A DNA stretch of 64,000 nt. Origin: an uncultured Prevotella sp. (GTDB lineage Bacteria; Bacteroidota; Bacteroidia; Bacteroidales; Bacteroidaceae). The position numbers and the translations under genes are program-made. The notes below the pieces were generated by a model, which was given only the letters and a program-made list of their open reading frames with translations, searched no databases and was not told where the DNA came from. Shown piece after piece: positions 9,094-53,354 of this stretch; positions within the stretch are counted from its first letter, which is position 1; each line of letters opens with the position of its first letter. The DNA is taken from contig UQFS01000014.1 of assembly GCA_900540375.1 (NCBI GenBank), forward strand, positions 17,863 through 81,862, read 5' to 3'.

Positions 9094-9202
9094 TGAGAAA
9101 AATATTTCTTGATACCAATGTGATGCTCGACTCTGTATTGGATTGAGTAATTTAGGCCAACAACATTTTAGATACTTAGGTACAGTAAAGCTCACGGCAG
9201 TT

Positions 9203-9700: not shown

Positions 9701-9707
9701 CTAATTG

Positions 9708-10904: not shown

Positions 10905-10907
10905 AGG

Positions 10908-12173: not shown

Positions 12174-12193
12174 TGGATAATTCTTTCAGCATG

Positions 12194-12201
12194 CAAATAT
12201 A
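12194..12201 (-). promoter_or_regulatory. Candidate -7 promoter element (TAtaTTTG on minus strand) for the methyltransferase gene
   Basis: The reverse complement of caaatata is tatatttg, about 20 nt upstream of the M gene start. Confidence 0.3.
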
Positions 12202-32239: not shown

Positions 32240-32278
32240 GCCAATGCAAACCCAAGGAAACTATATATAAACCGTAAG

Positions 32279-32305
32279 AAAGCCGCTGATTTTCAGCGGC
32301 TTTCG
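32279..32305 (+). terminator. Terminator hairpin after nqrF (agccgctg atttt cagcggct)
   Basis: Perfect 8-bp stem with a T-containing tail. It is flanked on both sides by a repeated tatatataaac motif. Confidence 0.5.
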
Positions 32306-32421
32306 GCGTATATATAAACTTCGGTTGTTGTGGTTTGGATAGGGTTTATTATGGTTTATTAGGGCTGATATTGTCACCCAAGTGTCACCGGAAAGTGTCA
32401 CCTAAAACTAAGTTATGCGAT

Positions 32422-36470: not shown

Positions 36471-39400
36471 ATGCCATTAGATAAAGGTAAACTTCAAAAG
36501 TTGTACTCCACTCTCCAGCAGGGCGGATACTCACAGAGCTATGATGAGTTTGAGAAAGGCTTCACGGGTAATGACAACTACCCCAACAGAAAGAAGGTCT
36601 ATGACCTCCTGACCGAGCATGGAGCTAACATCGGTAAAACGTATGAGGACTTCATGGGTAAGATGCAGGCACCGCCTCAGCCTTCCCAGCCTCAGCATCA
36701 GAACACCCCGGCACCGGCTCCTAAGCCTCAGCCGAAGCCAAAGGGCGGCGGCATGACTGCGGCTGAGCGTGCGCAATTCATCCGGAATGCCCAAGGCATT
36801 GTGCATCAAAGTGCAGCCGGACTCCAACGCGCGAAAAACCAGATGGACTATGCCAACAGCAACCGTGGGTTGAAAGTGGACCCCGTGCATTTGGGCCAGA
36901 ACGCGAAGGTAGTCAGGCGACATGTTAACGGCACGGTGGCAAAACCGCGTCCCGTCTTCGATGTTGCTCCTGAACAGCAGCCGGGCGACACCTACTTGAC
37001 CGAGAGCGGCAATGAGTTTGCCAGCCGAGCCGAGGCAGACACCGAGCAGAATGCCGTTGACCAGTATCGCTATGACCAGAGCGAGACCGGGCAGTTGAAT
37101 AATGCCTATGCCGAAGCAGAGAGGCTTGACAAGCTCTTGGAACAGCATGGTAAGGAACTCGACGATGAGAATAGAGACAAATGGTGGCGAGATCTTCCCC
37201 GTGGCGGTGGCGGTGCTGTCAGTACGATGAACGCCAACGACAACAACGGTCGCATGACCGATACCGAATACCTCAATTTATTGGCAGCACGCAAGAAGGT
37301 TGACGAGCAGATTAGAGACCTGAAGGCGGCGCGAGACGAGAAGACAGGCACCTTCCTTGGCGGACTGTGGCGTGGCTTCCGCGACTATGCCTTTGACCCG
37401 TCGAACTGGGACAACGGCTATAGTGACTTGCTGACTACCTCAGCCATGCTCCGTGCAAAGACAGGAGCTGCACAGACACCGAGAGAGAAAGCTTCCGAGC
37501 GCATGATGATGGAGGATACCTACAAGGCAGGTGTTGCAGCTCAGCAGGCAGAAAAGGTGCTTGGCAATGGCTACCGCTTTATGAGGATATGCGCACAGTC
37601 GCTGCCATTCGCACTCCAGTTTATGGCAGGCAATGCAACCGGCATGATAGGCGGGCTGACAAGAGCCGGTGAGGGCATGGGCGTGAAGCTGGCCCGTAAG
37701 ATAGCCATCAAGCAGGGAGCCAACAACATGATGCGCAATATTGGTCGCAGCGTGTTGAAAAATACCGGCGTTGCGCTTGGTGACCTTGGAGCAGCCACTG
37801 CACTTTCAAATACTATTCAAGCAGCACAGACATGGGCTGACATAGGTCATAGATATGCTGGTGATGTTACCTACGACCCTAAAACCGGCGATTATAAGCT
37901 TGAAGGAGGCAAGAGCCTCGGACGTTCTATCTATGAAGGTGAAGCCAATTCTATCATTGAGAACTACACCGAGCAGCTTGGCGAGCACATGCACCTTGGC
38001 AAGTTTGCTTCTTCCGCATTAACGAAGATGGGACTTGGCAGAGTGAGCAACTGGTTTACCAAGGTCGGCAAGAGTGAGTTCATGCAGGGCGTGAACAAAT
38101 ACATGAAGATGGCTAGCTTCAATGGTTATCCGCAAGAAGTGATGGAGGAAGAGGTAGGCATACCCCTTCATGCCATCTTTGACGGTGGAAACAAGATGAG
38201 TGACTTGCTTGACGGCAGGCAGCAACTTGACATCGTAGGCGGCATGCTGTTCTCAATGGCAGGTATGGGCGGTGCGTCGATGGTGATGCAGGGCGGACAT
38301 AAGGCGGCAATGGCAGTCCAGTACCACCAAGACCAACACAAACTCGACAATGCCGATAAGGTAGCGTCGTTCAGGCTCACGGCAGACAAGTGGGCACCCA
38401 TCAAGGAAGAGATTGACGGTACTACCAATGAGGATTTCGGCAAGGTGATGAAGGATGTACTCAGCAATGACGAGCTATCCGACCAAGAGAAGCAAGCCGT
38501 GTGGGACTATGCCCAGCGGCTTGTCATCATGCGTGGGCATAACATGGGTCAGGAGGCTGCTACTCGCAACGGCATGACCGATAAGGAGACCAATGCAGCC
38601 AACGAGAGCTACACACAAGGCTACAACACCACCGACGCAACGGCGATGAACGATGCGAAGAACAGACTGGCAGCTGCTCAGCAGAAGTTCGATGAATATA
38701 TGGAGCAGACGGGCCGCGAGCGTTGGGAAGGTGAACCGAGTATGCAGGACATACAGCATCGTCACCGAGACGCACAGAGTCTATTGAATGACAAGTGGGC
38801 TGACGGCACTCCAGTATATAATGAAAACGACGAGGAATACAAGCTTGCTCAGGCTGTTGTCAATGCCCAGCAGGAGTATGAGGGCATGATGCAGCGTGTG
38901 AGGGACGATATAGACGACGAGGTTCAGCAGACAGGAGCCATCTATGACAGCCGTACGAATGACCAAGGCGTTATTCAGTCGGCGACGCTGAAGGCGCAGA
39001 ACCCGGACGGCACCGACAAGAAGGTGTATATCACCAGCGGCAATGTCGTAATGACCGACGACGGGAAGAGCGTTGACAATCAGAAGAGCGACATGAGTAT
39101 TGTCGTTGTCGATGAGGACGGCAAGGTTCAAATGATTTCTCCTGATGAACTATTCTCCCTTGACACGCCGATAGACGGTGCTCAGGCAAAACAGCAAGCC
39201 ATTGACGCTATCCAGCAGAGCAAGGCGCAGGAAGCCGCAGATAAGATAAACGGCAAGGTCAATCTTACCGCAGGCAACACCTATACCCTTACGGACAACA
39301 CCGGACAGCAGATAGAGGCTACCATCGTTGCTGACGGTCAGACAGGAGCCGTGCAGAACCCTGACGGCACCGTTAACGTGAGCATGAACGGAAAGGTTGT

Positions 39401-42400
39401 GGCCATGGACGTGAACACGTTGCAGCAGATGGTGGACAACACCAACATGCAGAGAACGGCACAAGGCGACGAAGAGGGCGGACAGGAGCAGCCAACAGAG
39501 CAGAAAGGCGACCAAGGCATATTGGACCAAGGCGGCAATGTCGTAGACCTCTCCAACATCGGCGAAAGCGAGGAAGGCGGCGGAACCGTCGTGCAAGGTG
39601 ATGAAGACAGCGGAGCAGTACCGACCTATCCGGGTGGTGTTGTGGCTCCTGATATGTCAGAGCCTCATCAGTGGCAAGTCGATGATACGTTTACCATCGA
39701 CAACGGCGGTATGCCCATACGTGGGCAGGTTACCGGTGTCGGCGAGGACGGTGTGGAGATATACACCGAGAGCCCGGTGAATGGTAAGAAGATGCAGGTT
39801 GTTAGCCCGGAAGAGCTGCAAAGCATGACGACCGAGATTAACGGGGAGACGGTGCAGGCTCCGCAAGATGAAGCCGCTGCAGAGCAGCGGCCTACGGAAC
39901 CCAGCCCTACCGAACAGAGTGGGGTCAATGGGGTGAATGGGGAGCAGGCGCAAGAGCAAGCACCTCAGACACAAGAGCAAGCACAGCCTCAGCAGGCTGA
40001 TGGAGAGCAACCCGCACGAGCCATTGACCGCATACCGTCGCAGCAGATTGATGATGGTAAGGGAAATGTGCGCACAGTGCATAGCTGGGAGCAGGCAGAG
40101 CCGGGAGATACCTATGACGCACTGACAGAGATATACCACGGCAATGCCGACCGTGTGAAGAAAGGCATAGACAACCGTGTCGGCAAGATTGACAAGGCTA
40201 TCAAGGGCGTGCATAAGCAGATGGACGCTATCGACAACAGCGACGACTTCGACGAGGTTGCCGCACAGAGCGAGCAGTACGACCAGCTCCAGCAGCAGAA
40301 AGACGAGTTGGAGAAGCAGAAGAAGTACTGGCAGGGTGTGCAGATGGTACCCCGCAATCGCAAGATGGACGCCGACCGTCGTAGTGCTGAGGAACAGGCA
40401 GCTGCCAAAGCCGCACAGGAGAAGGCGGAAGCCGAGGCCGCTGAGAAAGCCCGTCAGGAGCGTGAGCAGGTGAACGGCGTGCCAAATGTAGTCAATGATA
40501 TACCGGCAGACGCGCGGAAGCGTGGTTTCCGCAATGTGAACGGCATGGTGGTGAACCGACAGGGCGAGACGCAGGGCGTTAGCGGCAGGGAGAGCAATGT
40601 GAAGTTCTCTTCCACCGACACAGCCAAAGGCCACATCAAGGTTATTGATGCTGACGAGCTCCAGCCGTCACACGTCAGCGGACAGCGCAACCCGTCATTC
40701 TTCATCGACGAGGCACAGCCAAAGGACAGAACGGACACTGTATCCGGAATGGCAGCTGCTAAGATTGCAGCTGACCTCAACCCGGAAGAGATAACGGGCG
40801 ACGGCAGTGCCTACCAGTTCAGTGCCCCGACGGTGAACAGCCGTGGTGAGGTCATTCAGGGCAACAACCGCAGTGACGCATTGAAGCTTATGTACTCCAA
40901 TCCAGCCTTCAAACCGGCTCAGGACGCATACAAGCAGTATATCGCCGACCATGCCGAAGAGTTTGGCTTCACTCCTGAGGACGTAGCGAAGATACAGCAG
41001 ATGGAGCACCCGGTGATGGTGAACGAGCTTGACGTGCCTGATGATGAGGCTATCCGCTTAGGCCAGATGAGAGCGAGCGACAACGAAAGTGGCGGCATTG
41101 AGCGTATCGACCCTGTGACGACCTCACAGAAGCTTGACGGCAAGGTGAGCAGCTTTGCCAACGTGTTGCTGTCCTCACCCGACGAGGACGCAAGTCTGAG
41201 CGATGTGCTCATGCAGAACGGAGCCAAGGCAGTGAATTGGCTGGCAACACAGGGAGCTATCAGCGACACGGCTGCACAGAGTGCCTTTGACAAGAAAGGC
41301 AACCTCACGCCTGAGGCACGCATGGACTTGCAGAATATCTTGAAGCAGAGTTTGTTCCAAGGTGGTGTGAGCGACCTGCCCACGATGTTTGACAAGATGC
41401 CCGCCAAGGCGCAGAAAGCTATCCTCTCCACGTTCATGCGCGACTTCGACAGTGCTGAGAGCGAGCGGATATTGCCTGAGATACAGCGAGCCATTGAGGC
41501 ATGGTACGACTGTGCGATGAGCAATGAGGCGTTTGCCAAGGCTTCCAACTACAAAGGAGCCAAGAATGCCATGCACGACTGGGAGCGTCAGACAAACATG
41601 CTTGACGACAACATGCCGTCGGATAAATTCAGTAACTTTGCAAGAGAGCTGGCATGCCGTCTGCAAGGTTGCAGCATGCGCGAGACGCAACAGAGCCTCA
41701 ACGACTTCTTCGACCTTGTGCAGGGCAAGAGCCAAGGTGATTTGTTTGGCGGCACGACAATGGGCGAGCAGGCAGACAGACAAGAGTCTATCCGCCGTAT
41801 TTTCAATATCGAATATAAACCAATAAGCAATGGAAAGACAAGAAGCAATGCTGTGGCTGACAACAGTAGCCAGAGCGGAGAAGGGCGACAAGGAAGCCCA
41901 ACAGATGGTAAGGGACGCGAACGAGCTGAGAGCGGAAGCGGGTCAGCCAACGGTGCAGGAGGAACTGAGAGCCATGATGAGGAAGGCATAAAGGCTACCC
42001 ATGTTGATACCTACGGTCATGGCTCCCGTACAATATATAAAAACCTTAAGACTGGAAAGGTAACTGTAATCTTCGGCGAAGGTGACAAGGCGAACCGTAA
42101 TGGTGGAAAATATAATGTGAGAACCGCTGCGGAGCAGCAACCTACAGAACCGAGCGGGGATAGTAGCCATAGAAACGATAGTAGCCATAGTATAGGATCG
42201 ACTTCTTCATCTGAGAAGAAGGAGACAGAGCGGCAAGGCGTGAACACTGAGCCTACTGAGAAGCAGAAAGAGGCCGGTAACTATAAGAAGGGACATATCA
42301 AGGTTGACGGCTACGACATCACCATTGAGAACCCTAAGGGCAGTACCCGGAGCGACAAGGACGCGTCGGGGAAGGCTTGGAGTGTGCCTATGCACTATGA

Positions 42401-45400
42401 CTACGGCTATATCAAGGGTACTGAGGGCGTTGACGGCGACCATATCGACGTGTACCTGTCAGACAACCCTACGAGCGGCAATGTGTATGTCATTGACCAG
42501 ATAGACCAGAAGACCGGCAAGTTTGACGAGCATAAGGTGATGTACGGTTTTCCATCCAAGGAAGCTGCTGTTGAGGCTTACAAGGGACAGTACGAGAAAG
42601 GCTGGAAAGTTGGCACGGTTACTGAGGTGAGCCGCGAGGACTTCAAGAAGTGGGTGGAGAGCAGCAAACGGAAGACCAAGCCGTTCGGCGAGTATAAGAG
42701 CGTGAAGGAGGCCGCTGTGGAGCGGCAGCCTACACAACCGAGCGCATCAACCGAGCGTACAGAGCAGAAGCAAAAGCGTACTACCACTAAGGGAAAGACG
42801 GAAAAGAACTTTGTCATTGAAATTCAGAACGCCATCGAGGACGATGCAGCCTACGGAAAGTACGACCACAAGCTTACGATGAGCGACATCAAGAAAATGG
42901 CTCAGAAGTATGACTTGCTGAAAGACTACAAGGACACCGACATGCAGGAGCTTGTGGAGAGAGCAATGACACTTGCCACAAGGCAGGTTGCTCAGGCTGA
43001 CATCAATAAGGACGAGCAGACAAAAAAGGCTGGTTTTGACGAGGTTGTAAGACTGTATCAGTCTCAGCCGAGCCTGAACGCGAGAGACACCAGCCGTGTT
43101 GCTCATCAGCAATACTCAACACCTACCCCATTCGGCTATGTGATGGATATGTTCATGATGGGTGGCGATAAGAAGCCGTTGAAGCTGTTGGAGCCGAGCG
43201 CAGGCAACGGAGCGTTGACGATAGGCATCCCGGCACCGCTGTGGCATGTGAACGACATCGACGAGCGCAGACTTATGAACCTCCGTACCATGCCCTACGG
43301 TCGGATAACCAATCAGGACGGCACCATGCCGTTTGAGCCCAAGGCATACGACGCAGTGGCTACCAACCCACCATTCGGCAGTACGCAGGAGAAGGAGTTT
43401 GACGGCGGCAGGACGAAGATAACCAGTCTGGAGGGGCTTATGGCTATTAATGCTCTTGCCTCCATGAAGGACGACGGGCGTGCCGCCATCATCATCGGCG
43501 GCAACACCCAGTATATGAGCAATGGTGCTATGCAGGCCAAGGATATGAAACTGTTCAAGCACCTGTACACCCATTACAACGTCGTTGACGTTATCAACCT
43601 TGACGGCGACATGTACAAGCGCAACGGAACCGGTTACAATGTGCGCATGATACTCATTGCCGGACGCAAGACCGACGTAGGCGACAATCCTGAGAAGTTC
43701 ACCTTCCCACCGGTGAAGAAGAAGGCGCGAGCCGAGCAAGTAAAGACATTCGACGAATTATATAAACGAGTAGAAGATGACATTCAACAAGCTAAGCAAA
43801 TGGAGCGTGAGCCTTCCGCTGCTGTCAACAGTGACGGAAGTCAGCCAGTCAACAGTACGTCAGAGCGTACTGGCAATAGTGAGGCAGCAGGTGGAGTTCA
43901 GCAACAACCCGTACGAGCAGGCGAGATGGAGCGACGTCCACAACCCGGACGGAGTGTACGACCTTCCTCAGCCCAAGACGGACGAGGAAATGGAGAACGA
44001 GGCCAACATGGAAGCGCTGACCGACTGGATAATGCAGACGGACGAGATGCAGGAAGCAATAACACTGTTCAGGGGAACAGACCCACACAAGGGCAATCCT
44101 CAGAACGGCGAGAAGTCGGAAGCACTGGACGAGGAACAGTCGGAGGAAATCAGCGTGGAGGAACTTCTGAACGGAATAACACCACTGGAGAGCGACCCGC
44201 GATAACCAAAAATGCTGAGGCACAGCCTCAGCGTACAGAACCGCGCGCACCACAAGCACCCCGTCAGAAGGTAGAGTTAGGACAGGAGAAAGTAGCCTAT
44301 CCTAACAAGAGCCAGAGCATGACACTTCAAAGCCGTGTGCCAGCCGCACAGGCTGAGGCTATTGCCGAGAACCTTGACAAGCTTGGCGATGTTGACGAGA
44401 TGGTACGCTCAGAGCTTGGCTACAGCAGCAAGGACGAACTGTACTCTCATCTTGCCGCCGAGCAGATAGACAGTGTGGCACTTGCCATCAATCAGATGAA
44501 GCATGGCAAGGGCTTCATTATCGGCGATATGACCGGTGTAGGCAAAGGCAGACAGGGTGCAGCCCTTATCCGCTGGGCTATCAAGCAAGGCAAGACCCCT
44601 ATCTACTTCACTCAGAAGGCACGTCTGTACACGGACAACTACCGTGATATGTGCGATATAGGCAGCAATGGTTTACGTCCGTTCCTTATTGCCTCAAATG
44701 ATGATGGCAATATCGTTGAGAACGTTGTCGATGAGAACGGCAAGAAAGTCTATGACAAGAATGGCGAGCCCGTTACCCGTGTCGTTTACGGACTTCCCAA
44801 GCCCAAGGAGCGTGAGCGTGTCTATGACTACATACTCCAGAACGGCAAGCTGCCACCTGAGTATGACTATGTGCTTGTCACCTACTCTCAGATACAGTCC
44901 GGCACCAAGACCTATGAGATAGGCAAGAATGGTGAAATAGAAGTTAAGGACAAGAAATACAAGGGCAAGACACCCGGTGCTGACAAGAATGGTGATATTC
45001 GCCGTGATGTGCTGGAGACGCTTGCCAAGGACAACTATGTCTTCTTGGACGAGAGCCATACCGTAGGCAGTCAGTCGTCGAGTGGTTTGTACATGCAAGA
45101 CTTGCTCAAAGGTGCAGAGGGAGTAACATATCTTAGTGCCACCTTTGCCAAGCGTCCCGATAACATGCCCCTGTATGCCATGAAGACAGCCATGAGCGAG
45201 AGCGGTCTGAGCCAAAAGGATATGATTGACGCTATCCAGAATGGCGGTGTAACATTGCAGGAAATTATGTCCAAGCAGCTTGTTCAGAGCGGTCAGATGA
45301 TTAGACGTGAGCGTGATTTCACCGGCGTAAGCATTGACTGGGAAGGCGTGGACGAAGAGACCGACAAGCAGCAGCGTGCCCAGTTTGACGAGGTTGCCAA

Positions 45401-48400
45401 GATATACAATGCCATCCGTGAGTTCCAAGACAACTATGTAGACCCGTCTATCGAGAAGATGAGCGAGGACATGGCCGAGGAAGGCATGTTCAGCAAGAAG
45501 ACCCAAGGCACCAGCCACATGGGTGTGAACAATGTCCCCTTTGCCAGCAAGATGTACAATCTTGTCAATCAGCTGTTGTTCTCACTGAAGGCCAATGCCG
45601 TAGCCGATAAAGCCATAGAGTGCTTGAAGAAAGGCGAGAAGCCCGTTATCAGTTTCAACAACACGATGGAAGGCTTCTTGGACGACATGCCGAGGAACAC
45701 CCCAATGCCGGAGCTTCCAAACTTCTCCTTGACTCTGATGAGAGCTTTGGAGGGCACGCTTCGTTATACCGAGGGCGAGGTAGGCAATAAGGACAATCAG
45801 GTCAACAAGACCCTCAACATCAACGACCTTGGCGATGAAGCCGTTGCCAAGTACAACGAGATACGCAAGACCATTCTCAACCTGAGCATAGGCTTGCCCA
45901 TTGACCCTATGGACGCTATCAAGATGCGGATTGAGGCAGCAGGTTACAAGGTAGGTGAGATTACCGGCCGCAAGTCAGAGATGGTGATGGACGCCGAGGG
46001 CAACTATATCGTTCAGAGCCGCAGCAGCAAGGAGATGGACGGCAAGGCCGCCGCCTCTGCCTTCAACAGTGCCAGCGGCAAGAATGGCGGTTTGGACGTA
46101 CTGCTTATCAATAAGAGCGGCAGCACCGGCATCAGCCTCCATGCGAGCAGCAAGTTCAGCGACCAAAGTCCTCGTGTGATGATAGCCGCGCAGTTCCAGA
46201 GCGACATCAACGACGAGGTACAGATGCGCGGCCGTATAGACCGTACCGGGCAGGTTCATCGTGGCAGGTACATCTACTTAGTGAGTTCCATCCCGGCAGA
46301 GCAGCGTTTGCAGATGATGTTCAAGAACAAACTGAAATCGCTTGACGCAAACACCACCTCTTCGCAGAAGTCGAAGTTCAACGAAATGGAAGTTACCGAC
46401 TTCATGAATAAGTACGGCGATGAAGTAACATGGTCGTATATGATGGAGCACCCCGACTTGGAAGATCGCCTTGGCGACCCACTCGACATGCTTTCTGATG
46501 AGAGCAAGAAGAGCAACCGCCGTGGCGGTGATGAAGAGAACAATCCAAACTCAGGTTGTGCCGGAAAGATACTCCGTCGTCTGCCATTCCTCAGCGTTAA
46601 GGAGCAGGAGCAAATCTTCAATGACCTTGCCGACGCATACAAGGTGAAGATGCAGATACTTAACGACGCAGGAGAGAACGACCTTGAAATTACCACCATG
46701 CCACTGAGAGCCGAGACCAAATCAAGGAAGGTTTGGAAACAAGGCTCAGACCCCGGCAGTGATAATGCCTTTGCCGACAATACATATCTGGAGACGGCAG
46801 AAGTGGACGTGCTGAAAAAGCCTATGAAGGCTAAGGAGGCGCGTGAGTATGCCGACCGCCTGACCGACGGCAAACCGTGGGAGCAGTGGCACGAAGAGCA
46901 GCATGAAGCCGTAGAGAAGTTCTATGCAGACAAGGCAAAAGCCGTTGAGGATAAGGCGAAAGCCGAGGCACAGAAGCGCATTAACAAAGCCCGTGAGGAC
47001 TATATCAAAGGTTGCCTGAAAGCCCGTAAGAAAGGTGACAACAACTGGAGTGACGAAGAGATAAGCCACATGGCAGATATTGCCGCAAAGGAAGCCGCCG
47101 ACAAGGAGCAGACGAAGATTAACAAGCGTACCGTGAGCATAGACGCACAGCGCAACGACGTATTGGGAGCATTGGACGCCTTCACTCCTTTGGAACCGTT
47201 AATCATCCCTCTGAACTTAAAGGACACGAGCACGACCGTTATTCCGAGCCTTGGCACCTTCCTTGGTATCAAGTTCGGCAAAGGTTATTCCCGTTCATCC
47301 TCAACGGCAGTGTTTGCCACCCTTGACGGACGCAGAAAGATTGAAGTGCCCCTTAGCGATAAGACAAGCCTTGAAAACATCAAGCACCAAAGCGTGATGT
47401 TGGGTTATCAGGCCCGTGGCCTCAGCATGGACAACTGGGATAGCAAGGTACCAACAAAGAGCCGCAAGACCGCATACATCGTAACCGGTAACTTGATGCA
47501 GGCACTTGTAGATACTCAGAAATCTCCGGAGACCAAAGGTCAGCTTATCAGCTATACGACCATTGACGGTGATGTCAAGCAAGGTATTCTGATGAATGAC
47601 CGCTTCAAAGAAGAGGACTTAAAGACCAGCGTTCCCATCAGTGCCATGCTGCAAAAGATTATCGACGGCGACGCCGTTGAGAGTGCTGACAAAGAAGTCA
47701 AGATAGAGCGTGGCATGTCGTACCACTATAACGACTTCAAGCTGAGCGTCCCCAAATCGAAGTCTCGTGGCGGCAAGTACTTCTTGGATAAGAAACTTCT
47801 GAGGCTACTCGATGACGAGTTCACCACCAGCGGCAGCAACATGACCGCTTGGGTCAGCCAGCAGAACCTTAAGAAAGTACTTGACTATCTGAGCAAGACC
47901 CTTGGCGTTACCGTACAGGTGAAAGCCAACCTTGAAGAGACAGCGGACAGTCCACATAATGACGAACCTGGCACCCCATCAGAGGCTGAGGAAGGTGGCG
48001 TGCTGTACAGAGAAGTTGACGACGAAGAGGCAGCGAGACTTGACAGCGAGCCGACGGTTAAGGTGTACCGAGCCATGCAGGAGCACGACGGTAAGCTCTA
48101 TCCACCGATGAGTGGCAGGGTGAAGACACAGGTTGAGACAAAGAAAGGCACCCTGCGCACGAAGTGGGTATGGCGTAGTCCTATAGAGATTGGCAAGTGG
48201 GAGCAGAGCGAGGAATACCCAGAGATGGCTAATGAAGACGGAACCTTTACCCTTGACAAGGGCAACGGCAGCACCATCAACGCAGCCTACAATCCGTATA
48301 TCCACACTTCACGCACCCCCATCAACGACCAGTTCTCATCAGCATGGAACAGACCAAAACTTGTTACCGTAGAGGTGGAAGTCCCGGTTAGCGAGCTTAC

Positions 48401-51400
48401 GAGCGGTTATCATGCTGAGAAGGCAAAGGACTCGACGGGCGAGGTAGAATGGAAGTCCGGTCCCGTCGGCAGAGAGATGGCGGCACAGGGCAATCCTCGA
48501 ATGGTTATTTTGAGCCGTTGGGATAAGCCTGTACGCATTGTACCTGTAGATGAAGTTGCCGATGAGTATGCCGTCAGGCTGGCAGGGACGGGGATAAAGG
48601 TACCGTTCAACACCGTGCCACCTGCACTTAGAGACGCGCTTGTTGCAAGAGGCGTTGAGATTAGCGAGCCTGAGGAAGGCAATGCAGGAAAGGCGAGCCG
48701 TCCGAGCTATGAAGAGTGGCTGAAAGGCAATACCCGTCGTCGTGAGGGCAGTGGAGCCTATAGCGATGAAGAATTATCGCTGATGAACGACCCTGTAGCG
48801 AAATGGCTTGGCAAGAGCAACCGCACCAAGGCACAGCAGAAAGCCTTTGCCAACAGAGAGCGCAAGAGCATGGAGAGTGCCGCAAAGGAGCTGGCTGATA
48901 GGCTTCACCTTGACAACGTGAATATCGTGATGGACGCATCCACGCTGGAGGGCAGAAAGGCACGTGCCAAAGGTTTCTATGACCGCAACACGAATGAGAT
49001 AACCATCGTTATTCCTAACCACCGTGATATTGACGACGTGATGCAGACCTTGCTCCATGAAGGCGTGGCGCACTACGGACTGAGGAAGATGTTCGGCAGC
49101 CACTTCGACATGTTCCTTGACAACGTGTATGCAGCCGCCGACAACGATGTGCGCAGGCGGATCACGGAGTTGGCACTGAGCAAGTACGGTGGCGACTTCC
49201 GTGTGGCTACTGAGGAATATCTTGCAAGCCTTGCAGAGCAGACCGACTTCGAGCACATACCCGAGACCTTCTGGCAGAAGATAAAGGACTTTTTCCTTGA
49301 TATGCTTCATGCCATTGGCTTTGCGGACTTTGCCGATAAGTATGACTTTACCCTGTCGGACAACGAGCTGAGGTATATCCTTTGGCGTAGCTATGAGAAC
49401 CTGAAGGAGCCGGGACGGTACCGCAGCATCTTAGGTGAGGCTGAGGACGTGGCAAAGCAGGCAGAGCTACAAGTTGGTAACTATGCACCTGAAAGCCTTG
49501 ACAGCAGTGATAACCGTGTAGCAGAGGCAAGTCCAAAGCTATCATCTGTAAAAAATGAGTTCGGCAAGCCATTTGTACTTTCTTCAAAGGGAAGTATAGA
49601 CATGGGATTTATTGATAAGGCTTCAGGTCTTAAAGAGGCTCCTATCAGACTTAGCGAAGGTGAAGATATTGTTGACGAAGATGGAAAGCACCATGGATAT
49701 GGGCTTCTGCATATTGCAGCAGAGCATGAAGGAGAAATACGCAATGCCAGCTATAACTCTGTCGAAGAGTTTGTTGAAGACGTAGCCAGCAATTACAACA
49801 CAATCCGTGAGGGCAATGTTGTTGCTAATAACCAAACCTACCTTGTTGAATTGACAGACAAGCACAACAATACATTGTATGTCGAACTTTCAAGAGACGG
49901 GAAGTACTGGAATATAAATAGCGCAGGAGTATTCCGTAAAGGCTATTCAAAGAATAAAAAGGAAGTCTACTCCCGACCCGCAATCGGTAGCAGTTCCGGC
50001 ACTCGAACTGCTGGAGTTAATCACGGCGTTAATAATAGTGCCACCGTCACCAGCGGGAACTCTCCTTTGACTTCCAATGCAAAGATAGGGAATAATTCCG
50101 AAAGAGGTGTCAATAATTCCGAAAATGTTTCGGAACCGAAGTCATGGGGCAAGCAAGACCTTATGAGCAAGGCAGAGCAGATAAGTAATGGCATTGAGCC
50201 GGATTTACTGTTCAGAGACACTATAGAAGATGATGATAACACGGCAAGGGAGACTTACGACCGATGGGCAGACCAAGCAAAGGAGCAGTTTCGTGAGGCT
50301 TGGCAAGACTCCATGATTAACGTCAGGAACCTGCAGGAGGCAGTATTGAAACAGCGTGGCGAGAAGTTAGAGCCATACGAGGATGCATACAACGAGGAAA
50401 ACCGCAGCCACGGCATAGGACAGGATAAGAGTGAGTATTTCACTGACAACCTCTATAAGCCGTTGATTGCATCTGTGAACGAAGCAGCCAAAAAGGCGAA
50501 GGTAAGCATTGGCGATGTTACAACGTATATGATGGCTAAGCACGGACTGGAGCGAAACGAAGCATTCGCAAAGAGAGACGCTGACGCAGCATGGACCAAG
50601 TACCAAGAGAAGCAGAAAGCGAAGTTCGACGAATACCAGAAGGCGCACCCCAACGGCAAGCAGACTCTAGCTGATTTCATAAAGAAGAGCTATGACGACT
50701 TCTACAATGATTATCGTGAGAAGGACTATAGCGGACTGACCTCACTCACCGATACCGACAATGTGCAGGACGCTGAGGCAGAAGCACAGCGCATCATAGC
50801 CGATATGGAGAGGAAAACCGACACCAAAGACATATGGGATAAAGTGAACGCTGCAACAAAGTGGACGCTGCATCAGGCTCACGAGAGCGGTATCATCAGC
50901 AGGGACAACTACCAGAGCGTGAAAGATATGTTCAAATACTACATTCCTCTGCGTGGTTGGAACGAGGACACGGCTGGGGACATCTATGACTATGTTGGCA
51001 GTGCCAAGGGAACGGCGTTCTCACCGACACTCGCCAAAGCAAAAGGGCGAAAAAGCCAGGCTGACAATCCTATTGCCTATATAGGCAGCATGGGAATAAG
51101 CGCAATCATACAGGGTGAGAGAAACAGGGTGAAGCAAGCCTTCATGCGGTTTGCAGAGAACCACCCGACAAACCTTGTAATGGTGAGTGAGATGTGGTAC
51201 AGGAACTTCGGCACAGACACCGCCCCCGATTGGCGTGAGGACGTGCCGAACATTCCCGAGAACACATCAGCCGACCAAGTGGCAGCCATTGTGGAGCAGC
51301 ACGAAAAGGACATGAAGGCTTTGGAGGCACAAGGGCTTGCTACCAAGAGACGTGGCAGGCTTCACCTTGGCGTGCCAATAAAGCCGAAAGAGGCTACAGA

Positions 51401-53354
51401 GCACCACGTAGAGGTGATGCTCAACGGAAAGAAATATGTACTCTATATCAACGGCAACCCCCGTGCAGCACAGGCACTTAACGGCACGAGGGCAAAGAGG
51501 GCACAAGAACACAGCACCACTGCAAAGCTTGATGATATAGCCAAGAACTTTGAGGATATGCACAACTGGATTGGAAGAAGGCTTGCATCCCTTACACGAA
51601 TGCTTGCCCATGGCCAAAGATGGATGGGCGCACGCTTCACCAGCAAGAACCCGGCGTTCATTCTCAGTAATGCTATGCGAGACGTGGATATGGCACTTGC
51701 CTCTACCGCCATAAAGGAAAGCCCGATGTACGCCTTGCGTTTCCGCCTGAACTTAGCAAGACTTGTGGGACCGGTGCGCATGCTTGGATTGAAGCACTGG
51801 TATGAGAACTACCGTGCAGCAGGCGGCAATAGTGCAGGACTGACAGGCTTGAAGAAATACTTCTATGAGTTCAATGCTGGTGGCGCACGTACAGGCTTCA
51901 CGTCGCTAAAGGATATCAAAGATTACAAGAAAGAAATTGAGAAGATGGTCAAGCAGTCGCAACAGTCGGTTGTCAATCCAAGACGATGGCTTCGTGTACT
52001 TGGCGATGGTTTCGAGTTTGCCAACAGCGCTGTTGAAGACATGACACGTTTCGCTACGTTCATGGCTTCAAGGCAAAGCGGACGCACAGTGAGGGAAAGC
52101 GTAACAGACGCAAAGAACATCACGCTGAACTTCAACCGAAAGGGCAGCGGAGAAATGGGCAACGCCACAATCAGGGAGATGCAGATATTCGTCAACCCTG
52201 CCATTCAATCATTGCAAACGATAGCCAGTCTGGCTACGCACCACCCTGTCAAATTCTCTGCTTACACAGCATTGAGAGTCTTGATAGGTATCGGTACGCC
52301 TTTCGCTACGTCACTCCTTTGGAGCATCTTCGGTGGTGGTAACGGTGATGATGACGACTGGAACGCAGAGGATGAATACTGGAAGCTGCCTACATGGACA
52401 CGCCGTTCTAACTTCGTGTGCTGGATACCGGGGACTCACAAATTTCTGATGATACCACTGGCTCAGGAGTTCCGTGTCATGAACGGCTTTGGCGAGACAA
52501 TTGCAAGTGCCATGACAGGTAACAGCGACGAGAACCCTGCATTGGAGATGTTAAGTCAGACATCAGGTCTGCTTCCTATAGACTTCACAGGTAACGGCAA
52601 CAATCCGTTTATCACCCTTTCGCCGACCATCATACAACCGCTGATGCAGATTCGCTTCAATACAGATTTCACTGGCAGACCAATATACAAGGACAGCGAG
52701 TGGAACAAATACGAGCCGGCATCGCAGAAGGCATATATCGGCACTCCGGGCGAGCTTGTAGACTGGTCGGCTAAGATAAACAATCATACGGGCGGTAACG
52801 AGCACAAGCAAGGCTGGTGGGAGCGGACGCTTGCTGGCAAGTATGCCAACAACCCTGCCATTGTTGACCATTTTCTGAAGGGCTATTACGGAGGATTATA
52901 CTCGTTCATTGCGCAGCTCGGAGGTCTCGCCTTCCATGCTTACAACGGTGAGTCTCCGGACGTGCAGGAAATACCAATGGCAAACCGCCTAGTCACTGCG
53001 CCTAGGGAAAAGTTGCAGAACGGCAAGATGAAGATGCCTGTCTGGTATTATGATATGCTGGACGACAACAAGCGCTACATGGACGAGGTGAACGGCTACC
53101 GCAAGGACATGCTTGCCAATAAGCCGGGAGCCGAGAAGCACTTCATGGAAATGACCAAGACGGACGAGTTCATGAAGCAGCAACAGGTCAATGCGCTGAT
53201 GAACGGTATCAACCAGATACGAGCGGCAATGCCTACCGTGGAAAATTCTCAAAATGACGAGGACGCCAAGACCAAGCAAGAGCTTGAGGGCGGTATAAAG
53301 GAGATACTCTCAGAACTTGAAAAGATAAGGAAAACGGGTAAGCCGTTGGAGTAA
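36471..53354 (+). CDS. Giant polyvalent protein (5,627 aa) with ParB-like, pyrophosphatase-like, N6-adenine methyltransferase, SNF2-family helicase and HExxH zincin modules
   Basis: One uninterrupted 16,884-nt ORF. It contains ParB-like ...VIQGNNRSDAL, PPase-like YGYIKGTEGVDGDHIDV, MTase LLEPSAGNGALT ... VATNPPFG, helicase GDMTGVGKGRQ / LDESHTV / LSATF / GSTGISLHA / QMRGRIDRTGQ, and zincin LLHEGVAHYG. Only short antisense ORFs overlap it. Confidence 0.85.
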   Translation: MPLDKGKLQKLYSTLQQGGYSQSYDEFEKGFTGNDNYPNRKKVYDLLTEHGANIGKTYEDFMGKMQAPPQPSQPQHQNTPAPAPKPQPKPKGGGMTAAERAQFIRNAQGIVHQSAAGLQRAKNQMDYANSNRGLKVDPVHLGQNAKVVRRHVNGTVAKPRPVFDVAPEQQPGDTYLTESGNEFASRAEADTEQNAVDQYRYDQSETGQLNNAYAEAERLDKLLEQHGKELDDENRDKWWRDLPRGGGGAVSTMNANDNNGRMTDTEYLNLLAARKKVDEQIRDLKAARDEKTGTFLGGLWRGFRDYAFDPSNWDNGYSDLLTTSAMLRAKTGAAQTPREKASERMMMEDTYKAGVAAQQAEKVLGNGYRFMRICAQSLPFALQFMAGNATGMIGGLTRAGEGMGVKLARKIAIKQGANNMMRNIGRSVLKNTGVALGDLGAATALSNTIQAAQTWADIGHRYAGDVTYDPKTGDYKLEGGKSLGRSIYEGEANSIIENYTEQLGEHMHLGKFASSALTKMGLGRVSNWFTKVGKSEFMQGVNKYMKMASFNGYPQEVMEEEVGIPLHAIFDGGNKMSDLLDGRQQLDIVGGMLFSMAGMGGASMVMQGGHKAAMAVQYHQDQHKLDNADKVASFRLTADKWAPIKEEIDGTTNEDFGKVMKDVLSNDELSDQEKQAVWDYAQRLVIMRGHNMGQEAATRNGMTDKETNAANESYTQGYNTTDATAMNDAKNRLAAAQQKFDEYMEQTGRERWEGEPSMQDIQHRHRDAQSLLNDKWADGTPVYNENDEEYKLAQAVVNAQQEYEGMMQRVRDDIDDEVQQTGAIYDSRTNDQGVIQSATLKAQNPDGTDKKVYITSGNVVMTDDGKSVDNQKSDMSIVVVDEDGKVQMISPDELFSLDTPIDGAQAKQQAIDAIQQSKAQEAADKINGKVNLTAGNTYTLTDNTGQQIEATIVADGQTGAVQNPDGTVNVSMNGKVVAMDVNTLQQMVDNTNMQRTAQGDEEGGQEQPTEQKGDQGILDQGGNVVDLSNIGESEEGGGTVVQGDEDSGAVPTYPGGVVAPDMSEPHQWQVDDTFTIDNGGMPIRGQVTGVGEDGVEIYTESPVNGKKMQVVSPEELQSMTTEINGETVQAPQDEAAAEQRPTEPSPTEQSGVNGVNGEQAQEQAPQTQEQAQPQQADGEQPARAIDRIPSQQIDDGKGNVRTVHSWEQAEPGDTYDALTEIYHGNADRVKKGIDNRVGKIDKAIKGVHKQMDAIDNSDDFDEVAAQSEQYDQLQQQKDELEKQKKYWQGVQMVPRNRKMDADRRSAEEQAAAKAAQEKAEAEAAEKARQEREQVNGVPNVVNDIPADARKRGFRNVNGMVVNRQGETQGVSGRESNVKFSSTDTAKGHIKVIDADELQPSHVSGQRNPSFFIDEAQPKDRTDTVSGMAAAKIAADLNPEEITGDGSAYQFSAPTVNSRGEVIQGNNRSDALKLMYSNPAFKPAQDAYKQYIADHAEEFGFTPEDVAKIQQMEHPVMVNELDVPDDEAIRLGQMRASDNESGGIERIDPVTTSQKLDGKVSSFANVLLSSPDEDASLSDVLMQNGAKAVNWLATQGAISDTAAQSAFDKKGNLTPEARMDLQNILKQSLFQGGVSDLPTMFDKMPAKAQKAILSTFMRDFDSAESERILPEIQRAIEAWYDCAMSNEAFAKASNYKGAKNAMHDWERQTNMLDDNMPSDKFSNFARELACRLQGCSMRETQQSLNDFFDLVQGKSQGDLFGGTTMGEQADRQESIRRIFNIEYKPISNGKTRSNAVADNSSQSGEGRQGSPTDGKGRERAESGSGSANGAGGTESHDEEGIKATHVDTYGHGSRTIYKNLKTGKVTVIFGEGDKANRNGGKYNVRTAAEQQPTEPSGDSSHRNDSSHSIGSTSSSEKKETERQGVNTEPTEKQKEAGNYKKGHIKVDGYDITIENPKGSTRSDKDASGKAWSVPMHYDYGYIKGTEGVDGDHIDVYLSDNPTSGNVYVIDQIDQKTGKFDEHKVMYGFPSKEAAVEAYKGQYEKGWKVGTVTEVSREDFKKWVESSKRKTKPFGEYKSVKEAAVERQPTQPSASTERTEQKQKRTTTKGKTEKNFVIEIQNAIEDDAAYGKYDHKLTMSDIKKMAQKYDLLKDYKDTDMQELVERAMTLATRQVAQADINKDEQTKKAGFDEVVRLYQSQPSLNARDTSRVAHQQYSTPTPFGYVMDMFMMGGDKKPLKLLEPSAGNGALTIGIPAPLWHVNDIDERRLMNLRTMPYGRITNQDGTMPFEPKAYDAVATNPPFGSTQEKEFDGGRTKITSLEGLMAINALASMKDDGRAAIIIGGNTQYMSNGAMQAKDMKLFKHLYTHYNVVDVINLDGDMYKRNGTGYNVRMILIAGRKTDVGDNPEKFTFPPVKKKARAEQVKTFDELYKRVEDDIQQAKQMEREPSAAVNSDGSQPVNSTSERTGNSEAAGGVQQQPVRAGEMERRPQPGRSVRPSSAQDGRGNGERGQHGSADRLDNADGRDAGSNNTVQGNRPTQGQSSERREVGSTGRGTVGGNQRGGTSERNNTTGERPAITKNAEAQPQRTEPRAPQAPRQKVELGQEKVAYPNKSQSMTLQSRVPAAQAEAIAENLDKLGDVDEMVRSELGYSSKDELYSHLAAEQIDSVALAINQMKHGKGFIIGDMTGVGKGRQGAALIRWAIKQGKTPIYFTQKARLYTDNYRDMCDIGSNGLRPFLIASNDDGNIVENVVDENGKKVYDKNGEPVTRVVYGLPKPKERERVYDYILQNGKLPPEYDYVLVTYSQIQSGTKTYEIGKNGEIEVKDKKYKGKTPGADKNGDIRRDVLETLAKDNYVFLDESHTVGSQSSSGLYMQDLLKGAEGVTYLSATFAKRPDNMPLYAMKTAMSESGLSQKDMIDAIQNGGVTLQEIMSKQLVQSGQMIRRERDFTGVSIDWEGVDEETDKQQRAQFDEVAKIYNAIREFQDNYVDPSIEKMSEDMAEEGMFSKKTQGTSHMGVNNVPFASKMYNLVNQLLFSLKANAVADKAIECLKKGEKPVISFNNTMEGFLDDMPRNTPMPELPNFSLTLMRALEGTLRYTEGEVGNKDNQVNKTLNINDLGDEAVAKYNEIRKTILNLSIGLPIDPMDAIKMRIEAAGYKVGEITGRKSEMVMDAEGNYIVQSRSSKEMDGKAAASAFNSASGKNGGLDVLLINKSGSTGISLHASSKFSDQSPRVMIAAQFQSDINDEVQMRGRIDRTGQVHRGRYIYLVSSIPAEQRLQMMFKNKLKSLDANTTSSQKSKFNEMEVTDFMNKYGDEVTWSYMMEHPDLEDRLGDPLDMLSDESKKSNRRGGDEENNPNSGCAGKILRRLPFLSVKEQEQIFNDLADAYKVKMQILNDAGENDLEITTMPLRAETKSRKVWKQGSDPGSDNAFADNTYLETAEVDVLKKPMKAKEAREYADRLTDGKPWEQWHEEQHEAVEKFYADKAKAVEDKAKAEAQKRINKAREDYIKGCLKARKKGDNNWSDEEISHMADIAAKEAADKEQTKINKRTVSIDAQRNDVLGALDAFTPLEPLIIPLNLKDTSTTVIPSLGTFLGIKFGKGYSRSSSTAVFATLDGRRKIEVPLSDKTSLENIKHQSVMLGYQARGLSMDNWDSKVPTKSRKTAYIVTGNLMQALVDTQKSPETKGQLISYTTIDGDVKQGILMNDRFKEEDLKTSVPISAMLQKIIDGDAVESADKEVKIERGMSYHYNDFKLSVPKSKSRGGKYFLDKKLLRLLDDEFTTSGSNMTAWVSQQNLKKVLDYLSKTLGVTVQVKANLEETADSPHNDEPGTPSEAEEGGVLYREVDDEEAARLDSEPTVKVYRAMQEHDGKLYPPMSGRVKTQVETKKGTLRTKWVWRSPIEIGKWEQSEEYPEMANEDGTFTLDKGNGSTINAAYNPYIHTSRTPINDQFSSAWNRPKLVTVEVEVPVSELTSGYHAEKAKDSTGEVEWKSGPVGREMAAQGNPRMVILSRWDKPVRIVPVDEVADEYAVRLAGTGIKVPFNTVPPALRDALVARGVEISEPEEGNAGKASRPSYEEWLKGNTRRREGSGAYSDEELSLMNDPVAKWLGKSNRTKAQQKAFANRERKSMESAAKELADRLHLDNVNIVMDASTLEGRKARAKGFYDRNTNEITIVIPNHRDIDDVMQTLLHEGVAHYGLRKMFGSHFDMFLDNVYAAADNDVRRRITELALSKYGGDFRVATEEYLASLAEQTDFEHIPETFWQKIKDFFLDMLHAIGFADFADKYDFTLSDNELRYILWRSYENLKEPGRYRSILGEAEDVAKQAELQVGNYAPESLDSSDNRVAEASPKLSSVKNEFGKPFVLSSKGSIDMGFIDKASGLKEAPIRLSEGEDIVDEDGKHHGYGLLHIAAEHEGEIRNASYNSVEEFVEDVASNYNTIREGNVVANNQTYLVELTDKHNNTLYVELSRDGKYWNINSAGVFRKGYSKNKKEVYSRPAIGSSSGTRTAGVNHGVNNSATVTSGNSPLTSNAKIGNNSERGVNNSENVSEPKSWGKQDLMSKAEQISNGIEPDLLFRDTIEDDDNTARETYDRWADQAKEQFREAWQDSMINVRNLQEAVLKQRGEKLEPYEDAYNEENRSHGIGQDKSEYFTDNLYKPLIASVNEAAKKAKVSIGDVTTYMMAKHGLERNEAFAKRDADAAWTKYQEKQKAKFDEYQKAHPNGKQTLADFIKKSYDDFYNDYREKDYSGLTSLTDTDNVQDAEAEAQRIIADMERKTDTKDIWDKVNAATKWTLHQAHESGIISRDNYQSVKDMFKYYIPLRGWNEDTAGDIYDYVGSAKGTAFSPTLAKAKGRKSQADNPIAYIGSMGISAIIQGERNRVKQAFMRFAENHPTNLVMVSEMWYRNFGTDTAPDWREDVPNIPENTSADQVAAIVEQHEKDMKALEAQGLATKRRGRLHLGVPIKPKEATEHHVEVMLNGKKYVLYINGNPRAAQALNGTRAKRAQEHSTTAKLDDIAKNFEDMHNWIGRRLASLTRMLAHGQRWMGARFTSKNPAFILSNAMRDVDMALASTAIKESPMYALRFRLNLARLVGPVRMLGLKHWYENYRAAGGNSAGLTGLKKYFYEFNAGGARTGFTSLKDIKDYKKEIEKMVKQSQQSVVNPRRWLRVLGDGFEFANSAVEDMTRFATFMASRQSGRTVRESVTDAKNITLNFNRKGSGEMGNATIREMQIFVNPAIQSLQTIASLATHHPVKFSAYTALRVLIGIGTPFATSLLWSIFGGGNGDDDDWNAEDEYWKLPTWTRRSNFVCWIPGTHKFLMIPLAQEFRVMNGFGETIASAMTGNSDENPALEMLSQTSGLLPIDFTGNGNNPFITLSPTIIQPLMQIRFNTDFTGRPIYKDSEWNKYEPASQKAYIGTPGELVDWSAKINNHTGGNEHKQGWWERTLAGKYANNPAIVDHFLKGYYGGLYSFIAQLGGLAFHAYNGESPDVQEIPMANRLVTAPREKLQNGKMKMPVWYYDMLDDNKRYMDEVNGYRKDMLANKPGAEKHFMEMTKTDEFMKQQQVNALMNGINQIRAAMPTVENSQNDEDAKTKQELEGGIKEILSELEKIRKTGKPLE

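Follow-up and report, generated by a model that had tools for sequence, protein, structure and literature searches.

The 64,000-nucleotide stretch analysed here (the window) belongs to contig UQFS01000014.1 of an uncultured Prevotella sp. (assembly GCA_900540375.1) and ends within a temperate, podovirus-like prophage of about 60 kb, which is carried by a human-gut Prevotella and integrated directly downstream of nqrF. The prophage encodes a single uninterrupted open reading frame (ORF) of 5,627 aa, delimited from the ORF list and its translation, whose product is, on sequence grounds, a phage-type polyvalent protein. Within it, a gamma-class N6-adenine methyltransferase (MTase) is fused to a SWI2/SNF2-clade ATPase. 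This unit has the make-up of the "DNA methylase-helicase dyad" that Iyer et al. (2017, J Bacteriol 199:e00245-17) described in polyvalent proteins, with DarB of phage P1 as the archetype (PMC5512222), and it would be a known kind of phage counter-defence device. An earlier note on this DNA had described the stretch at nt 43100-46300 as an orphan MTase fused to a translocase. That stretch is inside the giant ORF (flagged core, aa 2210-3277) and forms one module of a longer chain, in which nuclease-type domains, namely ddrB-ParB and a PBECR-like domain, are present as well.

Domain architecture of the giant protein

From N- to C-terminus, the protein consists of a ddrB-ParB domain, an InPase domain, a four-helix domain, the gamma-class N6-adenine MTase, a disordered linker, and a Strawberry-notch (Sno)-type ATPase. 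These are followed by a conserved C-terminal extension, a HEXXXH motif, the PBECR-like domain, and LPD38. The ORF and the domains that surround the dyad are as follows:

36471-53354, plus strand: polyvalent protein ORF, with Pfam matches to ddrB-ParB, InPase, AAA_34, Helicase_C_4, and LPD38
40620-41027, plus strand: ddrB-like ParB-superfamily (nuclease/NTPase-type) domain, aa 1384-1519 (Pfam PF18763, E 1.2e-21)
42258-42659, plus strand: inorganic pyrophosphatase (InPase) domain of the polyvalent-protein type, aa 1930-2063 (Pfam PF18823, E 4.6e-55, full-length)
49056-49073, plus strand: candidate zincin-like metallopeptidase site HEGVAH (HEXXXH), aa 4196-4201 (from the motif alone)
49671-49895, plus strand: weak PBECR1-like (barnase/EndoU/RelE-type RNase) cassette, aa 4401-4475 (Pfam PF18809, E 1.7e-3, below the cut-off)
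52368-52979, plus strand: LPD38, aa 5300-5503 (Pfam PF18857, E 2.7e-27)

InPase, DdrB-ParB, and LPD38 are phage-type polyvalent domains that are likely packaged in virions, and HEXXXH is a variant metallopeptidase motif described for polyvalent proteins (PMC5512222). A Pfam search of the HEGVAH region gave no match. The InPase region gives rise to the PHROG matches called "DarB-like" (an antirestriction family), "virion structural protein", and "minor head protein", and PHROG 14770 spans most of the C-terminal half of the protein. The signatures NPPF and DESH each occur once across the 5,627 aa. A hydrophobicity scan identified two hydrophobic, Gly-rich segments at aa 588-606 (nt 38232-38288) and aa 5268-5288 (nt 52272-52334). 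They resemble membrane-insertion helices, one being N-terminal and the other lying just ahead of LPD38.

The methyltransferase and its flanks

Sequence motifs and a structural model identify the first enzyme of the module as a gamma-class N6-adenine DNA MTase, with DNA methylation as its predicted activity. The features of this half of the module are as follows:

42807-43070, plus strand: four-helix domain N-terminal to the MTase, in the LPD36 position, aa 2113-2200 (AlphaFold helices at model residues 10-113; conserved in homologues)
43071-43805, plus strand: gamma-class (HsdM/TaqI-like) N6-adenine MTase catalytic domain, aa 2201-2445 (motifs, fold, and model)
43191-43220, plus strand: motif I, EPSAGNGALT, aa 2241-2250
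43365-43379, plus strand: motif IV, NPPFG, aa 2299-2303
43806-44297, plus strand: disordered linker of about 160 aa, polar and rich in Arg, Gly, Ser, and Gln, aa 2446-2609 (a composition scan flags aa 2432-2607)

Motif I precedes motif IV by 58 aa, start to start, which is the gamma-class order that the earlier note had reported. YSTPxP, EPxAGNG, and NPPF are invariant in an alignment of 58 sequences, and the window copy reads YSTPTP, EPSAGNG, and NPPF. The AlphaFold model of aa 2085-2450, built on 58 sequences, has a predicted local distance difference test score (pLDDT) of 92.5 and a predicted TM-score (pTM) of 0.90. It consists of four N-terminal helices and then a compact Rossmann core in which motif I follows strand 1 and NPPF follows strand 4. 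The closest Foldseek neighbours in the PDB include HsdM (7eew, 3ufb, 2okc, 5ybb), M.BseCI, BsaXI, CamA, and M.TaqI, all of them gamma-class N6-adenine DNA MTases, in agreement with the class first proposed; the best match is 2f8l, an uncharacterised putative class I methyltransferase. These structural alignments are confined to the catalytic domain of 200-260 residues. The MTase part has no above-threshold Pfam match, and PADLOC returns weak Type I MTase and mad2 matches for its core, with none elsewhere.

The MTase lacks a target-recognition domain (TRD). Its model contains no domain beyond the Rossmann core, and the distance from motif IV to Walker A, which ranges from 228 to 810 aa in the family, is 228-264 aa from NPPF in compact homologues, leaving no room for a conventional TRD anywhere in the family. 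The four-helix domain is modelled at aa 2113-2197; the loop that joins its second and third helices is KYDLLKDYK, which has no GxG, and at this place the family consensus is only GIxD. A profile search with this domain gave no match to LPD36.

A substrate other than DNA, either RNA or protein, is highly improbable for this enzyme. The Joint Genome Institute (JGI) names several homologues "predicted RNA methylase", there is a weak match to Pfam MTS (PF05175, E 0.05), and NPPY/F is also found in HemK-type and rRNA MTases. However, among solved structures, each of the 40 nearest neighbours except 2f8l is a DNA adenine MTase, and the highest-ranking enzyme that does not act on DNA is TehB, in 42nd place. 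The TP-helix and NPPF signature of the EcoKI/TaqI family is invariant, the domain is homologous to the MTases of DarB and HsdM, and it is always fused to a double-stranded DNA (dsDNA) translocase.

The Sno-type ATPase and the extent of the unit

The second enzyme is, by sequence, an ATPase of the Sno subfamily, and both sequence and model place it in the dsDNA translocase class. Its features, together with those of the extension that follows it, are listed below:

44298-46694, plus strand: Sno-type SWI2/SNF2-clade superfamily-2 (SF2) ATPase, aa 2610-3408 (Pfam, motifs, and model)
44535, plus strand: GVGKGRQ, aa 2689
45048, plus strand: DESH, aa 2860
45135, plus strand: SATF, aa 2889
46119, plus strand: GSTGISLHA, aa 3217
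46221-46253, plus strand: QMRGRIDRTGQ, aa 3251-3261
46695-47870, plus strand: conserved C-terminal extension of the dyad, about 390 aa, aa 3409-3800 (by consensus in stand-alone homologues of about 1,550 aa)

With motifs I and IV, these five complete the set of seven that the earlier note had placed here, and all seven were located inside the one ORF. Pfam detects AAA_34 (E 1.7e-19, 70.3 bits against a gathering cut-off of 27) and Helicase_C_4 (E 4.5e-24, 86.1 bits against 30.5). The same pair is found in nearly all homologues, including gp3 of BS-TP4 (PQ571277.1), a cultured temperate Bacteroides salyersiae phage that is syntenic with the window prophage. GxGKG, DExH, SAT, TGxSxH, and QxxGRxxRxxQ are invariant in an alignment of 55 sequences. 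The AlphaFold model of aa 2610-3800 has a pLDDT of 85.3, and its Foldseek neighbours are of the SWI2/SNF2 type (ISW1, Chd1, CSB, Snf2h, Rad54, ALC1, Mot1, and ZorD), so the fusion of an MTase upstream of an SF2 ATPase, as originally read, can be assigned to this clade. A sequence search of the module against PDB chains gave no match, and neither the module nor the neighbouring genes match NCBIfam.

None of the PADLOC defence-system models matches the ATPase, which makes a defence role unlikely. Membership in DISARM, BREX, Type ISP, or Type III systems was considered and rejected: there is no PADLOC match for the ATPase, and Pfam scans reveal neither an endonuclease nor an HsdS/TRD domain.

The C-terminal extension comprises a beta-rich segment, two long helices, and an alpha/beta domain with a TGNLxQA...SYTT motif, modelled with pLDDT mostly between 80 and 93; it possibly binds DNA. 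Stand-alone homologues of about 1,550 aa match window aa ~2113-3850. Their extent indicates a functional unit at approximately nt 42807-47870 (aa 2113-3800, about 1,700 aa). The interval 43100-46300 holds the catalytic core of this larger unit and is not a separate gene.

Family size and cassette exchange

A motif census of 120 database homologues found the motifs in essentially every sequence spanning the region. An exhaustive search with the MTase unit gave 2,036 representatives with E<=1e-3, of which 551 reach E<=1e-30. Among the best 150 of the 2,036 matches, 142 were new proteins, and motifs I and IV are present in 136 of the 142. The ATPase motif set is present in 87 of the 90 representatives that have more than 1,100 aa past motif IV. 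Loss of catalytic motifs among homologues, which the earlier note had named as a finding that would refute its reading, is therefore not seen: the motifs are invariant or nearly so. The new proteins among these best 150 matches include 92 of at least 3,000 aa and 46 of at least 5,000 aa, the longest having 7,703 aa. At least 87 representative giant proteins with a Sno-type dyad point to a large, mostly unannotated family. A scan of species-representative genome contigs with the module found no relative.

Two IMG/VR relatives with complete giant genes, L012 and L014, were compared with the window protein. L012 (6,098 aa) is 94-100% identical over aa 1-4250 and only 42-71% identical from there to the end (nt ~49220-53354). 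It contains a 572-aa block that is absent from the window and is inserted exactly at aa 2112 (nt ~42806), the N-terminal edge of the four-helix domain of the MTase. The extra block of the relatives contains MutS domain I (E 4e-8). L014 (an open frame of 5,867 aa) lacks the ddrB-ParB block and is 31-57% identical to the window protein over the N-terminal 1,300 aa and 85-97% identical over aa 2250-4250. The PBECR-like cassette is swapped for other sequence in both relatives, and giant gene lengths among the variants range from 5,627 to 6,217 aa. The region from the dyad through HEXXXH is thus a conserved core around which cassettes are exchanged. The dyad itself is 85-100% conserved among sister phages that have exchanged their flanking cassettes, which suggests that it is under selection. 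A difference between the window module and those of its sister phages, indicated by fragmentary database matches of at most 58-69% identity, was discarded; the IMG/VR loci are 93-100% identical, and the low values reflect a large-protein database that lacks the full-length giants.

In the giant protein, a lineage-specific motif, A-A-x-[EQ]-[QR]-[QR]-P-T-[EQ]-P-S, is found repeatedly where domains or cassettes meet. The window contains three copies:

39882-39905, plus strand: copy 1, AAA-EQRPTEPS, aa 1138
42132-42155, plus strand: copy 2, TAA-EQQPTEPS, aa 1888, just ahead of InPase
42720-42743, plus strand: copy 3, AAV-ERQPTQPS, aa 2084, between InPase and the MTase unit

The window, L012, and L014 variants carry 3, 5, and 6 copies, respectively, and one copy in L014 lies between the MTase and the ATPase. 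The motif occurred 0 times in 300 shuffles, 0 times in 166 database homologues, and 0 times in BS-TP4. In a further relative (L004, ~20473-20526), a copy with 33 of 36 nucleotides identical lies outside the giant gene and beside the reverse transcriptase (RT) of a diversity-generating retroelement (DGR), which makes a role at the DNA level conceivable, in addition to a peptide feature. The motif may serve in processing or as a recombination joint, or may simply be a linker. A direct part in the 572-aa deletion relative to L012 is not supported, because the junction lies 28 aa downstream of the motif.

These cassettes also bear on an offensive function, in which the dyad would mark phage DNA by methylation, and nucleases of the polyprotein or elsewhere in the phage would break down DNA or RNA of the host or of competitors that lacks the mark. 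In that case the polyprotein would resemble a mobile single-chain restriction-modification (R-M) system or a Type ISP-like weapon and not a shield. The ParB-superfamily nuclease-type domain and the weak PBECR RNase-like domain on the same chain are consistent with such self/non-self marking, as is an MTase fold closest to that of Type I HsdM. It is nevertheless unlikely, as Pfam scans detected neither an endonuclease of the PD-(D/E)xK, Mrr, or HNH type nor a domain resembling a TRD or HsdS, and PADLOC gave no R-M, BREX, or DISARM match for the ATPase. Furthermore, L014 lacks ddrB-ParB, yet its dyad is 85-97% identical, which indicates that the two are not obligately coupled.

Prophage and gene context

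Upstream of the prophage integrase lie the host genes tamB and nqrA-F; the clusters to which the host proteins belong bear the names Prevotella, Segatella, or Leyella. The prophage occupies the identical nqrF-proximal site in many independent human-gut metagenome contigs (junction 32240-32422; L007-L011) and is also seen as contigs of about 60 kb. The genes recognised around the giant ORF are as follows:

32422-33561, plus strand: tyrosine integrase at the left prophage end (Pfam Phage_integrase, SAM-like, and Arm-binding domains)
34436-34915, plus strand: candidate T7 gp14-like internal virion (ejection) protein (Pfam T7_gp14, E 1.4e-5, 25.5 bits against a cut-off of 27)
35009-36448, plus strand: 479-aa low-complexity protein, conserved beside the giant gene in relatives
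54173-54856, plus strand: NYN (RNase-like) domain gene between the giant gene and the portal gene (phrog_5783, E 4e-83)
55035-57089, plus strand: P22-like portal (Pfam P22_portal, E 3e-39; phrog_156, E 8e-97)
57420-59534, minus strand: large terminase subunit (phrog_2, phrog_24361, and phrog_5989, E 1e-11 to 1e-15)
61093-62607, plus strand: SU10-like major capsid protein (Pfam SU10_MCP, E 1.2e-10)

The order of the head module is thus the gp14-like gene, the 479-aa gene, the giant ORF, the NYN gene, portal, large terminase, and capsid. The 479-aa protein has no match in Pfam, PHROG, or NCBIfam. Neither the 32 kb of prophage within the window nor the next 10 kb yielded a recognisable restriction endonuclease, which bears out the earlier observation that no restriction gene lies nearby. 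Past the window end, the capsid genes are followed by a second giant gene of 2,858 aa (L003/L004/L005, 11317-19893), which has no Pfam match, and then by a reverse transcriptase (RVT_1; L004, 20584 onward). This gene and the RT resemble the DGR-targeted gp14 and the RT of BS-TP4. Together, the two giant genes make up about 43% of the ~60-kb phage genome.

The two hydrophobic segments and the gp15/gp16-like gene position give a hint of a second role, in which parts of the giant protein may contribute to the ejection channel. The same features, with the giant gene following the gp14-like gene, are compatible with a motor for genome internalisation or remodelling, in which the ATPase would pull or clear the entering DNA and methylation would be secondary or regulatory. 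Such a motor could strip host nucleoid proteins, help ejection, or support early transcription or replication. The structural neighbours Mot1, CSB, and ISWI are protein-displacing dsDNA translocases, and Iyer et al. name early replication or transcription among the possible roles (PMC5512222). The obligate fusion to an MTase with invariant motifs (87 of 90 representatives) argues instead that methylation is central, and the dyad also exists as a stand-alone protein of about 1,550 aa in non-virion contexts. A motor function of this kind is quite unlikely.

Many prophages carry orphan MTases, and the catalytic motifs of this one are intact. Expression in the lysogen, as implied in the earlier note, imposing a new N6-methyladenine (m6A) motif on the chromosome for epigenetic regulation or protection, is nonetheless very unlikely: the module is internal to a 17-kb ORF of the late head and packaging module, lacks a TRD to define a motif, and is joined to a translocase and to effector domains of a kind that injected proteins typically carry. 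Because the gene belongs to a late virion module, the methylome comparison of lysogen and cured strain that the earlier note proposed would probably be uninformative.

Host restriction and site avoidance

The host half of the window encodes a cytosine-based R-M island, as described earlier:

9203-9700, minus strand: Vsr
9708-10904, minus strand: EcoRII
10908-12173, minus strand: C5-MTase

The G+C content of this island (8001-12200) is 0.41-0.43, compared with about 0.48-0.53 around it, which suggests horizontal acquisition. Site counts were compared between the prophage half (32251-64000) and the host half (1-32250) of the window and in four related loci (L001, L003, L012, and L014). In the prophage half, CCWGG, the site of the host EcoRII, occurs 4 times against 36 expected. 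GATC (8 observed, 84 expected), GGCC (35 and 158), GAWTC (3 and 31), CTGCAG (3 and 15), GATATC (2 and 13), and GTCGAC (2 and 12) are likewise scarce. Overall, 10 palindromic sites are depleted to 0.10-0.30 of expectation, with several 6-mers at 0.11-0.24, against a median observed/expected ratio of 0.87 over 63 palindromes. The adjacent host DNA (1-32250) shows no comparable depletion. L012, L003, and BS-TP4 avoid sites as the window prophage does; in L014, however, CCWGG occurs 30 times against 30 expected and is thus not avoided.

Type II systems, host EcoRII included, therefore seem to be countered passively by site depletion. The earlier note had confined any conflict to adenine-sensitive host systems, a restriction that does not hold, since the phage answers EcoRII in this way. 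Passive countering of Type II enzymes would fit an enzymatic module aimed at systems whose sites are unavoidable, such as Type I and Type III-like systems.

Proposed function

The giant protein is probably packaged and injected with the DNA, and its dyad would then protect the incoming phage genome in cis. It is proposed that the protein is made late, packaged into the capsid, and ejected with the genome, and that its own HEXXXH peptidase may process it into separate units. The dyad would load on the entering dsDNA, where ATP-driven translocation would carry the MTase along. Adenines would be methylated with little or no specificity, Type I/III-like restriction complexes would be displaced or stalled, or both. 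As a result, phage DNA would be protected in cis, as P1 DNA is by DarB against EcoK and EcoB. Virion delivery is suggested by the position of the giant gene between the gp14-like gene and the portal, terminase, and capsid genes, an order that is kept in BS-TP4. It is also supported by the virion structural and minor head annotations of the InPase PHROGs together with the phage-type domains. The P1 Dar proteins are capsid-loaded and co-ejected (PMC12810830), and the virion RNA polymerase of phage N4 is a further protein ejected with phage DNA (PMC5512222).

Several observations weigh against this proposal. We infer packaging from gene context, and ejection, DNA methylation, and the anti-restriction role are likewise predictions. 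The gp14-like match falls below the Pfam cut-off, and neither DarA nor Hdf packaging partners were recognised in the inspected prophage. Inspection covered about 42 kb of the ~60-kb phage, so a distant partner gene is possible. The missing TRD could mean that specificity comes from another part or that the substrate is not DNA. Resemblance to DarB is also limited: BLASTP of the module against DarB is marginal (E 8e-4 over 99 aa around Walker A; E 0.079 for the MTase segment), and DarB matches N6_Mtase/Eco57I, SNF2-rel_dom, ResIII, and Helicase_C, whereas the window module matches AAA_34 and Helicase_C_4. Moreover, the mechanism of DarB is "not defined", and the reported effects of plasmid-borne darB proved to be DNA-sequence artefacts (PMC11109961). 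A literature search found no experimental work on Sno-MTase fusions.

A more specific version, unlikely as it stands, is that the dyad is a "travelling" non-specific m6A methylase and that the boundary motifs are protease release sites and cassette-swap joints. A TRD-less MTase on a flexible tether to an SNF2-type translocase may coat the incoming genome with m6A processively, regardless of sequence. Release of the dyad and the other enzymes from the injected 5,627-aa chain would be carried out by the HEXXXH peptidase or by a host or prohead protease. If true, such a methylase would defeat many adenine-sensitive systems at once.

Protection of the injected genome by the dyad, as proposed above, would give this phage two anti-restriction strategies in one genome, Type II site depletion and a probably injected enzymatic module. 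DarB-type methylase-translocases are common in phages and conjugative elements, and their mechanism is undefined (PMC11109961). The locus is a member of a large family of proteins of 3,000-7,700 aa, nearly all of them without annotation. Its carrier phages are prevalent in human gut metagenomes, and the cultivable BS-TP4 makes the mechanism of the dyad testable in Bacteroidales. Near-identical phages that keep the dyad and swap the cassettes around it provide a natural comparison.

Comparison with known systems

P1 DarB (2,255 aa) has an N6-adenine MTase first and an SF2 ATPase after it, as in the window. By hhalign, the family profile matches DarB aa 71-224 with a probability of 93.6-94.6% (E 2e-7 to 7e-8) and with motifs in register; no match was reported for the ATPase half in this comparison. 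The P1 portal gene adjoins the DarB gene, as the window portal gene adjoins the giant gene. The ParB-like domain of P1 DdrB is also present in the giant protein, and thus one chain combines domains that P1 encodes separately. Unlike the window dyad, which is a module of one chain, DarB is a separate protein packaged via Hdf, DarA, DdrA, and Ulx. DarB is capsid-packaged and protects against EcoK/EcoB Type I restriction; for the window module, gene context points to packaging. The DarB-type layout recognised in the earlier note equals the published dyad (PMC5512222). Membership of the DarB family is not upheld: the ATPase is of the Sno type, similarity to DarB is marginal, and the PHROG match named "DarB-like" concerns InPase only. 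DarB orthology or family membership of the module was rejected on these differing ATPase subfamilies, on the marginal BLASTP result, and on tblastn, in which P1 is absent from the matches of the module at E<=1e-3.

Giant "DarB-like" proteins also occur in podophages; that of Serratia phage Parlo (3,764 aa; PMC6606913) has a related N6-adenine MTase, with 27% identity over about 270 aa. Likeness to the window protein is confined to this domain, and the ATPase and remaining architecture show none that is detectable. A literature search found nothing relevant on DarB-like proteins in Bacteroides or Prevotella phages.

Stand-alone MTase-Sno proteins of Bacteroidota (~1,550-2,100 aa) share the whole unit, helical domain and C-terminal extension included, and are 36-41% identical to it, with all motifs kept. 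They often carry MutS_I between the MTase and the ATPase, comparable to the block of the sister phage variants. Unlike the window dyad, they occur outside giant polyproteins, and some have a RadC/JAB domain. Two of them, of ~1,650-1,700 aa (P0020 at L015 and P0080 at L017), lie in integrated elements that consist of many small unannotated genes along with genes for a serine recombinase, Peptidase_U49, a cell-wall hydrolase (Amidase_2 or SLT), and, downstream, a conserved AAA_24 protein. Within 10 kb on either side of these two homologues there are no conjugation genes that could be recognised, which gives no basis for calling their elements conjugative transposons.

BS-TP4 gp3 (5,391 aa, annotated as hypothetical) has the same order of ddrB-ParB, InPase, MTase, Sno ATPase, and LPD38. 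The two phages share the arrangement of a small gene, a gene of ~400-480 aa, the giant gene, and portal, as well as a large DGR-targeted gene with an RT. BS-TP4 differs in host genus, in lacking the boundary motif and a gene at the NYN position, and in its 39.8% identity over the module.

In the published dyad, LPD36 is followed by an adenine MTase of the EcoKI/TaqI type, which has NPP[YF] and an N-terminal helix capped by a TP motif, and then by a SWI2/SNF2 ATPase. LPD36 is made of four helices, the second and third being separated by a GxG[GAS] motif, and dyads have Sno-like ATPases "in a few instances" (PMC5512222). The window unit has the TP-motif helix, NPPF, a C-terminal SWI2/SNF2 fusion, and a small helical domain ahead of the MTase. 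It is likewise part of a multi-enzyme protein with InPase, ddrB-ParB, candidate metallopeptidase, PBECR-like, and LPD38 domains, encoded by a (pro)phage with portal and terminase genes. It differs in that its four-helix domain lacks the GxG[GAS] motif of LPD36 and in that its ATPase is of the Sno type, with at least 87 such giants found here compared with the few instances of the paper. The current understanding of these dyads is not overturned; a known theme is extended to gut Prevotella phages.

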